From Escherichia coli (lineage in GTDB: Bacteria > Pseudomonadota > Gammaproteobacteria > Enterobacterales > Enterobacteriaceae): 64,000 nucleotides of DNA. The first letter of the stretch is position 1. The number at the start of each line of letters is the position of its first letter. The stretch is from assembly GCF_002854065.1 (NCBI RefSeq), contig NZ_CP024150.1; one strand, written 5' to 3'. Made by a program: the position numbers. Positions 18,001 through 21,000 of the stretch are shown here, piece by piece.

Positions 18001-21000
18001 TATCCGTCGCCCCAGCGCGACCTACTTTGTCCGGGCCATTGGCGACTCGATGAAAGATATGGGTCTGCACTCCGGCGATTTAATGGTTGTCGACAAAGCC
18101 GAAAAACCCATGCAGGGGGATATTGTCATCGCGGAAACAGACGGCGAGTTCACCGTTAAACGCCTGCAGCTTAAACCCCGAATCGCCCTGCTGCCGATGA
18201 ATCCCGCCTACCCCACCCTCTACCCGGAGGAACTGCAGATATTCGGCGTGGTGATGGCATTCATCCATAAGACGCGGGGTATGGACTGATGTTCGCTCTG
18301 GCTGACGTCAACAGCTTCTATGCGAGCTGTGAAAAGGTGTTTCGTCCGGACCTGCGTAACAGGCCCGTTGTGGTGCTCAGTAACAACGATGGTTGCGTGA
18401 TCGCGCGCAGCGCCGAAGCGAAACGACTGGGCATTGAGATGGGCGTCCCCTGGTTCCAGCTGAAGACGGCACAATTCCCGGAACCGGTCATCACGTTCTC
18501 GAGCAATTACGAACTCTATGCGTCTATGTCAAACAGGGTAATGTCTCATCTCGAGGAACTGGCGCCATGCGTGGAGCAGTACAGCATCGACGAGATGTTT
18601 CTGGATATTCGCGGCATAGACAGCTGCATTAATTTTGAGGACTTCGGCCGACAGCTGCGTGAGCACGTGCGCTCCGGTACGGGGCTGACAATCGGCGTAG
18701 GGATGGGACCGACCAAAACGCGGGCTAAAAGCGCACAATGGGCGTCTAAGGAATGGCGGCAGTTTGGGGGCGTGCTTGCTCTGACTACTGGAAATCCAAA
18801 GCGAACGGAGAAACTGTTGTCACTGCAACCAGTAGACGAAATCTGGGGGGTTGGCCGCAGGATCGCAAAGAAACTGAGCACAATGGGGATAACAACTGCA
18901 CTGCAGCTGGCGCGCACGAACTCTATATTTATCAGGAAAAATTTCAGCGTTGTGCTGGAGAGAACCGTCCGAGAACTCAACGGAGAATGCTGTATTGCAC
19001 TGGAGGAAGCACCGCCCCCAAACAGCAGATAGTCTGTAGCCGGTCCTTTGGGAGCGCGTCACGACATATGAGGCCATGCGCCAAGCCGTCTGTCAGTACG
19101 CTGAGCGTGCAGCTGAAAAGCTGCGGGGCGAGCGCCAGTTCTGCAGGCATATCGCCGTTTTTATGAAAACGTCACCACTCGCAGTCAACGAACCGTATTA
19201 CGGGAATGTGGCCAGTGAAAAACTGCTCATCCCCACGCAGGATACACGCCCCCTTCATCGGCCAGTTCACGATAACGATAAAATGTATCCCGCGAAACAC
19301 CCATGATTTTACAGGCTTTTGATACATTGCTGAGTTCTTCAGCCAGATTGAGCAAACCGGTTTTGTGTTTGATGACGGGATTGGTAGTATGAAGCATGGG
19401 AGTTACCTCATGTTTTGTATAAGGATTCGACATCCATATCAACACTGGTAACTCTCAACCTTTCAAGGCCATGTGTCAGATCAAGTCGCGACTAATACAC
19501 CTATGGCTACGCAATCTTTCTCGCACAGAGACAGGCCATCCTGGATATGTGGCACAAAATTGCGCTAGCAGGGAGCGCACCATCTGAACAGATAGCCGCT
19601 GACCTCGTTTACTTTAAAAATATTCTCGAACCTTCCCGTTGATAATGAACGTATTCAATTTTGTCGACCCACAGCACAAACCGTGAGTCTGTTCAGAATT
19701 GTTTTTTGGACAGGCGAGGGGTTGGACAAGCCCGACGGGCGCGTCAGCCTGTCACATCACGGTATAACCAAAACAAGAGGAAGCCCCCCTTGTTTTGCAA
19801 AAACGCCCATCTTACAGACCGAGGGACGACTAGGTTTTGTTTATCCACGCATGGTCCTCTTCCCACGTGAACATCCATTTGCGCACCGGCCCGGCCATCA
19901 CGTTGAGGTAGTAGCTGTCATACCCCGCCATGGTTGCCACCGGGTGGTAGCCCTTCGGCACCATCACCACGTCACGGTTGTAGACCGCCATGCATTCATC
20001 CAGCGTTCTGTCGTCAGTGTAGACCCGCTGCATGCAGAACCCCTGCTCTGGGTTGAGTCGATGGTAATAGGTCTCCTCCAGATACGTCTCCAGGGGTTGA
20101 TTATCCGTATCGTGCTTATGGCTCGGGTACGAACTGGTGCAGCCTTCATTGGTCCAGACCTCCACCACCAGCAGGCTGTCAGCCGGTTTGTCTTCCGGCA
20201 GAATATTGTGCACATAGCGCTGGTTATGGCCTTTGCCGCGCGCTTCAGCGTCTATATCCTGCGGTGCAATCAGCCGCGTCGGCCAGCTACCTTTACCCGG
20301 AGCGGCGCAAACCGCCAGTTCCAGCTTCGTGAGCGCCTTCACCTGCACCGTTTCCTGCGGGGTAACGTACACTGCCCACGGCTTGATGCGCTCGAATGGG
20401 CTCATCCGCTCGCCAATATCGTTAAACTGCGCGGAGGGCGTGCTGATGGAGGCGCGCCCGGCGACCAGTACCAGACAGCGCTCTTCGCTGACGGCGGGCA
20501 GCGTCAGCTGCTGCCCCTCCTGCAGCTCATAGGCCTCAAAGCCAACATATCCCCACCCAGCGCATTCCGGTGTGACGGACTGGGTCCGCCCTTCATCGTT
20601 CGGCTGTTGCCAGCGTGATAGCAGACGTGACATGTCACCTCCTCAGATAAGCCCGGCGTCGCGCGCCAGACGGCTCAGGTTGTTATACCCCAGACGGGCA
20701 TAGGTCAGCGGATGGGCAATCGCCGGATCCTGCTCCGCCTCCACCACCAACCAGCCGTGATAATTCTGCGCTTTCAGCAGTTGCATGATCGGCGGATAAT
20801 CCACGCAACCGTCGCCCGGCACGGTAAACACGCCGCTCAGCACCGCATCGAGGAAGCTGGTTTTGCGGTTTTTGACATCCGCCAGCACGTCGGCACGCAC
20901 GTCTTTGCAGTGAACGTGGTTGATGCGCGACGCCCAGCGCTGCGCCACCGTCAGCGGGTCGGCCCCGGCAAAGGTCAGGTGACCGGTGTCCAGCAGCAAC

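Follow-up and report, generated by a model that had tools for sequence, protein, structure and literature searches.

The closest described counterparts of the locus analyzed here are the resolution sites of small serine recombinases. In the res site of Sin, found on Staphylococcus aureus plasmids, as in the six site of the β recombinase, an imperfect inverted-repeat site I of about 28-30 bp, with a 2-bp crossover at its centre, is followed by a head-to-tail accessory site just upstream of the recombinase gene, with plasmid dimer resolution as the presumed function; Sin res has one accessory site and occupies 86 bp in all, with a spacer bent by HU or IHF. The half-sites in Sin site II are arranged head-to-tail, and accessory motifs of this type are the hallmark of Sin-type res sites (PMC2428073). 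The res sites of Tn3 and γδ likewise lie upstream of the resolvase gene, and they comprise three subsites, each an inverted repeat of a 12-bp motif, with a distance of about 53 bp between sites I and II. Here, we examined a 64,000-nt stretch of Escherichia coli DNA (contig NZ_CP024150.1 of assembly GCF_002854065.1; the whole stretch is referred to as the window), in which a preliminary description had reported a repeat of about 85 bp at three module junctions, considering it either a recombination site at which the modules were joined or a miniature mobile element. Our analysis indicates that the repeat is probably the partition-side part of a multimer-resolution locus belonging to a large enterobacterial plasmid family—with two of the three copies in the window representing truncated leftovers. 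The element would thus be an ordinary kind of plasmid feature that has gone unannotated, i.e., the edge of a dimer-resolution locus from an uncharacterised Gram-negative branch of Sin-like recombinases.

All three copies (termed c1, c2 and c3) are present where they had been reported, with c1 and c2 in direct orientation and c3 inverted, although the limits originally given were too narrow. Blastn of each copy against the window aligned c1 (19658-19765) with c2 (43427-43533) at 83.3% identity over 108 nt (E = 4e-27), c1 (19646-19773) with the inverted c3 (51184-51056) at 78.3% over 129 nt (E = 6e-25), and c2 (43447-43533) with c3 (51152-51064) at 80.9% (E = 8e-17). At full similarity extent, c1 covers positions 19646-19773 on the plus strand (core 19678-19767; nhmmer match 19671-19767, E = 6e-27), c2 positions 43427-43550 on the plus strand (core 43447-43533, extended to 43550 by a shifted right arm; nhmmer E = 1.5e-27) and c3 positions 51056-51184 on the minus strand (conserved core 51059-51152; nhmmer E = 2e-25). 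No fourth copy was detected in the window, where all other blastn matches had E > 1 and an nhmmer profile of the element returned just c1-c3; a separate repeat search recovered the same copy pairs as two direct and two inverted entries. Alignment of the copies delimits a conserved core of about 90 nt, AAACCGTGAG...CACATTnGGGTAT. The conserved ends and variable palindromic centre noted at the outset proved right in essence, the centre being the apex of a hairpin with the layout CTGTTCAGA-(5-7 nt)-TCTGARCAG.

To describe the distribution of the element, we searched 72,556 PLSDB plasmids and 5,426 complete E. coli genomes. The element occurs in 1,732 of the plasmids at 1,893 places, usually once per plasmid, and the hosts comprise Klebsiella (903), Salmonella (455) and others, including Enterobacter, Citrobacter, Escherichia and Yersinia. 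Carriers include pSLT (the Salmonella virulence plasmid), pMT1 of Yersinia pestis and Klebsiella IncF/IncR plasmids. Among the E. coli genomes, 64 carry the element, with 75 of 76 places located on plasmids, and a collection of phage records yielded no match. No annotated feature lies beneath the element under any PLSDB or E. coli match, and a literature search with the exact core sequence found no paper. The order (umuDC), partition genes, element, small serine recombinase gene and rpn recurs in pMT1, in Klebsiella IncR/IncFIA and Citrobacter IncFII plasmids, and in Pantoea and Erwinia; in pSLT and a S. salamae plasmid, the element is followed directly by rpn, with no recombinase gene in between. 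We further compared homologous loci (labeled L002-L072), among them a sample of 45 true copies drawn from plasmid loci, 37 metagenome loci recovered with a 20-nt core pattern and one locus from a scan of viral contigs. A recombinase gene, either full-length or truncated by the contig, lies downstream in 20 of these 45 copies, with its ATG at +190-194 from the core start in 20 of 20, and one further copy is followed by a recombinase remnant with a deleted 5' end. Across the same lineages, identity amounts to 71-93% for the core, 61% for parA, 65-79% for the recombinase gene and 50-68% for the right part of res.

The recombinase gene accompanying c3 (50327-50959, minus strand; WP_044789357.1, 210 amino acids) encodes a small serine recombinase displaying R8/S10 and a DRLxR motif in its translation, and 194 nt separate its ATG from the start of the core. 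Among proteins of solved structure, Sin is the nearest relative (2r0q, E = 9e-14, i.e., only a distant relationship), and PF00239 was found in all close homologues. A dyad-axis scan of 18 recombinase-linked copies peaked at GGGTA/T (the slash marks the axis), where 7.2 of 15 positions are complementary versus about 3.7 expected, with 10 of 14 in c3; the half-sites TGTCA and [AT][GT]ACC occupy positions 11-15 on either side. On this best axis, the predicted crossover site, site I, covers 30 bp at 51050-51079 (minus strand; AGTCA-N9-A/T-N9-TGACC, axis 51065/51064), of which the element core holds only the left arm and the centre. Moreover, two units of same-orientation half-sites with 14-bp spacing lie at fixed positions between the core and the ATG in 18 distinct loci (e.g., GTGACCACATAAGTGATACCAT and AAGACCACTTAAATGTTACCAG; pattern xxACCAC-N6-GxxACC) and are absent from c1 and c2. 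In c3, these units correspond to a predicted site II (51000-51022, minus strand), formed by GGTACC and GTTACC placed head-to-tail 14 bp apart and conserved in the 18 loci as well as in distant homologues, and a predicted site III (50971-50993, minus strand), in which two AGACC half-sites are placed head-to-tail at the same distance. The centre of site II lies 53.5 bp from the axis of site I. Recombinases of marine γ-proteobacteria with about 52% identity are likewise associated with two units at matching distances (GGAACCATTTAAAACAGACCGG) and with a strong 30-bp site I palindrome, GGTTCCTGATGGGTA/CACATCAGGGGAACC, whose axis and the centre of the first unit are 53 bp apart; a GGGTA/Y centre is common to both families. 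The assignment of sites I, II and III thus draws on the dyad axis, the head-to-tail units and the Sin-type hallmark mentioned above. A perfect TATAAT (50992-50997), 35 nt upstream of the ATG and without a recognisable -35 box, is located between sites II and III and suggests a resolvase-repressed promoter, that is, autoregulation. A further motif left of the core, TTGACC-N8-AAACC, was considered as a fourth head-to-tail site and rejected, its spacing being 13 rather than 14 bp and its spacer GC-rich and variable.

On this basis, the last 18 nt or so at the right of the element (TGTCACATTnGGGTA/T) would represent the left arm and crossover centre of site I in a Sin-like res site. At c3, we infer that the recombinase binds sites I, II and III—the latter two overlapping its own promoter—and it would then bring together the two res sites of a dimeric plasmid, cleave at the central AT and thereby achieve resolution. 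The left 75 nt would be a separate module, kept as a fold on the recombinase-sense strand. In c1 and c2, the right arm and/or the accessory sites, along with the gene, would have been lost via rearrangements starting in or just after site I, and both copies should be inert for the resolvase because they lack accessory sites. The predicted site shares with Sin res the small serine recombinase, its position just upstream of the gene and the succession of a predicted inverted-repeat site I and head-to-tail accessory motifs. However, it has two accessory sites rather than one and differs in the distance between the centres of sites I and II (53 bp), and Sin res offers no counterpart to the conserved 75-nt hairpin module on the far side of site I. 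With the Tn3/γδ sites, it shares the three subsites upstream of the gene, the distance between sites I and II and, probably, a promoter over the accessory sites; nevertheless, the half-sites are inverted there and direct in sites II and III here, no transposase or terminal repeats are present, and the protein is closer to Sin. The direct half-sites place the locus outside the Tn3/γδ type of res. The outer half-site TGTCA also resembles the Tn3 motif TGTCYR.

The setting of each copy is consistent with this picture. A virtually identical counterpart of the window is the E. coli plasmid p2017.06.05CC_1 (NZ_AP027791.1; 100% over window positions 17000-24000), from which gene names were transferred (window position = 82311 - record position, a relation that fits throughout the window). 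The DNA preceding c1 (19500-19645, plus strand) is a par remnant, in which a small partition gene of type Ib is represented by its 3' end, with 93.8% identity to a segment of L006 (6151-6311) that sits downstream of a 208-amino-acid ParA. By its sequence and by comparison with recombinase-linked copies, c1 contains the site I left arm TGTCA and the centre GGTA/T at 19750-19767 (plus strand; axis 19764/19765), retaining a few bases of the right arm; the iolB terminator region begins at about 19768-19775. Next to c2, a P1/pMT1-type partition operon, parB-parA (41112-43291, minus strand), is divergent from the element, and the gene order at this side matches pSLT, pMT1 and a Klebsiella plasmid. 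The right arm of c2 is out of register, with TGACC at 43546-43550, 3 nt too far, and is fused to the last ~50 nt of rpn and its downstream DNA (43551-43872, plus strand; 87-88% identity to L003 6139-6464 and further loci). Both accessory sites, the recombinase gene and most of rpn have been lost in a deletion of about 2 kb that begins just past site I. No recombinase gene was found within 1.2 kb after c1 or c2, and both are copies truncated from the right, each apparently having arrived together with a separate partition module (type Ib par in the case of c1, parAB in that of c2). In contrast to these two, c3 is a complete copy with its own recombinase gene. The proposed location at three module junctions hence holds for c1, at the boundary between the par remnant and the iol genes; c2 marks the endpoint of an internal deletion, and c3 resides in its native, intact setting.

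The segment carrying c3 is itself bracketed by insertion sequence (IS) elements. IS3 copy A (43873-45130, plus strand; identified by repeat search, ends and flanks, and annotation) and the inverted copy B (56480-57739, differing by a 2-nt indel) enclose 11 kb holding c3 and its recombinase gene. This configuration may account for the opposite orientation of c3. The 3-nt flanks at the outer left (AGT) and inner right (ACT) of the two IS3 copies are reverse complements of each other, and the other flank pair is not, which suggests but does not prove an IS3-mediated inversion. On the other side, the surroundings of c1 include the first of two umuD(C) modules that are 80-94% identical (17716-18124 versus 39182-39591, and 18289-19445); its umuC is truncated at about position 19245, and the next feature is a fragment (19227-19445, minus strand) that codes for a helix-turn-helix of IS type. 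The conjugative plasmid, of the IncF/I type, also carries a complete gene cluster for myo-inositol catabolism (19830-32888), which comprises iolB, E, C, G and D together with mmsA and an ABC transporter and has c1 as its boundary on one side.

Breakpoints at homologous loci fall in the same part of the element. In copies without the recombinase gene, the right flanks split into many unrelated classes about 0-15 nt after GGGTAT. The deletion in L044 joins GGGTATA to a GGTATA inside the recombinase gene, indicating microhomology, and the one in L006 starts at GGGT. Additionally, 2-2.3 kb of cargo separate the partition-side copy from a second copy preceding the recombinase gene in L062, L031, L007 and pMT1; cargo between two direct copies was mapped at L062 2976-5445, L031 2833-5019, L007 2235-4123 and L002 3268-4088 (lengths of 0.7-2.3 kb), and the genes involved include Phd/RelE-type toxin-antitoxin pairs, a helix-turn-helix gene with a 205-amino-acid partner and unknown genes. 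The element accordingly does flank different cargo in other plasmids, as seen both between direct copies and in the divergent right flanks. The earlier proposal of a recombination site joining modules is thus borne out in part, by sequence and comparison, in view of the half of site I within the element, the flank breaks near its centre and the cargo between direct copies. On the other side, c2 is a deletion and c1 an off-centre break, neither being a clean exchange, and the left 75 nt fall outside res. A similar break in homology has been described at another resolution site, rfsF, in IncR and IncI1 plasmids (PMC9412624, PMC8004404).

The left 75 nt of the core deserve separate consideration. 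They form a 20-pair imperfect hairpin with a GA/GA internal loop (AAACCGTGAGTCTGTTCAGA ... TCTGAGCAGGCGAGGGGTT), followed by a short GCCC-loop-GGGC hairpin with 10-12 nt between its arms; pMT1 has a 3-nt deletion. Hairpin 1 of c1 is located at 19679-19723 (plus strand; apex ATTGT, with the 20 pairs counted on the combined alignment described below). According to the sequence of c3, hairpin 1 (51107-51151) and the GC hairpin (51089-51100) precede the site I left arm on the minus strand. Ahead of them lies a left extension (51153-51251, minus strand), composed of TTTCGGCACTATCGGAAAAAGTGTCCAGAAAATATTTCTGGTGATCGTATTTAATTTTGTTGACC and 8 variable nt and seen in many recombinase-linked copies in an alignment of 37; its portion 51188-51251 matches more than 10 loci at 84-89% identity by blastn. 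Moreover, a search that used a divergent copy as query revealed a second group of 768 PLSDB plasmids, mostly large Klebsiella plasmids, in which the module stands alone, without site I, convergent with rpn and about 10 nt past the point where a ResD-like tyrosine integrase gene ends. These stand-alone variants (L067 3501-3580; L069 1501-1573; L072 1501-1555; L006 7547-7627) form perfect stems of 18-20 bp, in which Watson-Crick pairs that differ in sequence (CCCCTTG/CAAGGGG, TCG/CGA and AACGTTTAG/CTAAACGTT) take the place of the internal loop. In a combined alignment of main-family copies and stand-alone variants, with 500 shuffles as control, 83.5% of the cells are paired—a value reached by none of the shuffles, with slid controls at 25-46%—and five pairs are changed on both sides, in nine cells (equaled in 1 of 500 shuffles). 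The base pairs of the hairpin are, in short, kept by compensatory change, and the structure is conserved.

The fold also shows a strand preference. On the recombinase-sense strand, every common mismatch is G-T (66 cells, versus 6 A-C cells), and in DNA folding this strand outperforms its complement in c1, c2 and c3; the z-score is -3.6 for c1 (versus -2.3 on the other strand) and weak for c2 and c3 (-1.5 and -1.6). The recombinase-sense strand coincides with the one transferred in pSLT and, within the window, does so at c1 and c2, with c3 being opposite; since this match follows from the conserved gene order, it constitutes weak and non-independent evidence. A search of the window, the c3 region, L007 and one stand-alone variant against Rfam 15, at the gathering threshold and at E ≤ 10, gave for the element only chance hairpin matches to microRNA models. 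No intrinsic terminator was found around c3 or within c2 (the nearest match, 43807-43827, is outside the element), and neither hairpin is followed by a T-run on either strand. Sites for CRP, LexA, SlmA, matS, KOPS, Ter, IHF, XerCD/dif and relaxase nic were also sought by eye and set aside, the partial matches not being conserved across copies. Of the roles that the hairpin may have, the most likely is that of a self-acting RNA or transferred-strand DNA, for example as a transcript boundary or in processing of transcripts from the left; it may, in second place, be an extra architectural part of the res complex and, in third place, a priming signal.

Several results weigh against a multimer-resolution locus as the origin of the repeat. 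Among the common Klebsiella-type copies, the site I dyad shows only weak symmetry (6 of 14 positions), and a competing odd-centred dyad, GGTAT-N9-ATACC, scores 6.0/15; the latter was dropped as a candidate for site I because the even-centred 30-bp dyad scores higher and agrees with the distant family. The predicted res, with three subsites over ~110 bp (51079-50971), is unlike the 86-bp, two-site Sin res, and the break in c1 lies inside the right arm of site I, off the centre. The hairpin module is, furthermore, on the wrong side of site I for a known res component, and because it lies outside res and also occurs without site I, the proposed function leaves most of the repeat unexplained. Within the main family alone, RNAalifold recovers the hairpins and covariation does not exceed that of shuffles, the pairs being too conserved to provide a signal; and scans around c2 and c3 found no sigma-70 promoter that would transcribe the hairpin.

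The strongest alternative is one that we regard as a credible contender though short of probable: the hairpin module itself would be the selected unit, acting autonomously as single-stranded DNA on the transferred strand or as RNA—in priming, in processing or as a transcript boundary—with site I as a mere neighbour and the copies not being relics of res. The 768 PLSDB records with the module past ResD-like integrase genes and without site I speak for this idea, as do the perfect 18-20 bp stems of differing sequence, which represent compensatory changes. The variation in loop length and the 3-nt deletion of pMT1 would also ill suit a rigid double-stranded protein site, and the G-T mismatches are confined to one strand, the one that folds better and that is transferred in pSLT, c1 and c2. 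However, the module has no Rfam family and no promoter or terminator signature, c2 and c3 fold with weak z-scores, c3 is oriented the other way, and orientation relative to the origin of transfer (oriT) is not independent. Above all, this alternative leaves the recombinase spacing of 190-194 nt and the GGGTAT breakpoints unexplained. A stronger version, about which we are more doubtful still, would make the hairpin an undescribed autonomous and strand-specific element of some 2,500 sequenced enterobacterial plasmids, operating as folded transferred-strand single-stranded DNA or as RNA beside either a serine-resolvase site I or a tyrosine resolvase gene. If true, it might function in priming or establishment after conjugation, or in the control of the neighbouring recombinase and rpn nuclease genes, and two unrelated classes of recombination system would have been placed beside it independently.

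Two known systems bear on such a function. The ssi/Frpo elements of conjugative leading regions are also strand-specific hairpins, associated with the transferred strand at the far end of the leading region; nevertheless, our element is much shorter and lacks paired -35 and -10 boxes. The cer site of ColE1, which uses XerCD together with ArgR and PepA, contains the internal Rcd RNA and is thus a resolution site carrying a small structured transcript. It thereby offers a precedent for linking a dimer-resolution site with an element that forms a fold, although it has no sequence similarity to the element analyzed here, and no promoter was found at the latter.

Two further explanations are unlikely. 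According to the first, the core would be a promoter or operator for the next gene, whether recombinase, rpn or cargo; indeed, the core lies upstream of and co-oriented with that gene in intact loci, and a TTGACC occurs at a fixed distance leftward. Still, promoter scans find nothing around c3 on either strand, no -10 hexamer occurs 16-18 nt past the TTGACC, and the sole good -10, the TATAAT at 50992-50997, is well downstream of the core, with the stand-alone variants residing at the 3' ends of genes.

The second, which appears slightly more improbable, holds that hairpin 1 is the double-stranded core site of a tyrosine recombinase, like loxP, dif or rfsF, at which modules are exchanged. Its 11-7-11 layout with a variable spacer (GTCTGTTCAGA-GCTTGCA-TCTGAGCAGGC) is suggestive, the stand-alone variants adjoin ResD-like integrase genes, and L033 is broken exactly at the spacer. 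That apex break was discarded as evidence of exchange, given that an IS91-family (rolling-circle) transposase gene adjoins the cut at GAAC (L033 5062-5957), the known target of such insertions. The hairpin, for its part, holds several GAAC/CTTG target tetranucleotides. Moreover, complementarity runs 7-9 bp past the arms, with compensatory changes that a core site would not need; the annotation of the window includes no gene for a tyrosine recombinase; and the flanks are shuffled to the right of the core rather than at the hairpin. The ResD site rfsF consists of 28 bp, AGATCCGNAA-N8-TTNCGGATCT (PMC8299605), and a search of the window that tolerated up to 3 mismatches did not recover this pattern. 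Both F and a pLVPK-like plasmid have rfsF upstream of the ccd-resD operon rather than at the hairpin, so that both sequence and position rule out hairpin 1 as rfsF. F's rfsF/ResD system and the fusion site (28 bp) that Klebsiella virulence plasmids carry resemble the present locus in their association with replicon fusion and backbone exchange, and differ from it in sequence, in their tyrosine class and in position. Homology between plasmids has been reported to end at rfsF-type sites (PMC9412624, PMC8004404, PMC8299605).

Finally, that the repeat is a miniature inverted-repeat transposable element or a piece of the end of an IS or transposon—an idea invited by its shortness, its palindrome, its occurrence in both orientations, the IS3 by c2 and the IS fragment left of c1—is very improbable, as the element shows no terminal inverted repeats or target duplications, has copies that are 78-83% identical rather than near-identical, occurs usually once per plasmid in a single gene order, is chromosomal in just 1 of 76 E. 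coli places and absent from the phage collection, and has no IS or other feature annotated under any match, which leaves the miniature mobile element of the preliminary description without support.

The multimer-resolution reading bears implications beyond this window. The element ranks among the most conserved non-coding stretches of medically important plasmids, and it is devoid of annotation in every record examined. As the edge of a dimer-resolution locus—which would also explain why it turns up at mosaic plasmid junctions—it may provide a precise landmark for backbone breakage and cargo gain. The predicted sites I to III, in turn, define a testable res site for uncharacterised Gram-negative Sin-like resolvases, and the presence of the hairpin beside an unrelated class of resolvase may point to a plasmid function not yet named.

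Other repeats were observed elsewhere in the window. Two GC-rich repeats of about 300 nt (12125-12418 and 14990-15259), 76-96% identical in blocks and ~2.9 kb apart, sit in the conjugative leading region between the relaxase gene and ardA/psiA; they differ from the hairpin element and could be single-stranded-DNA promoters or priming repeats. Rfam AgrB matches at 4239-4326 and 54180-54267 (41 and 61.5 bits) lie by annotated DinQ-like type I toxin genes (dqlB), and some 300 nt around them are also repeated (3781-4091 versus 53702-54020). Two adjacent AT-rich repeats of 42 nt (12510-12551 and 12577-12618), each with the palindrome AGTGAAnTTTnTTCACT, could constitute an operator or iteron-like site.

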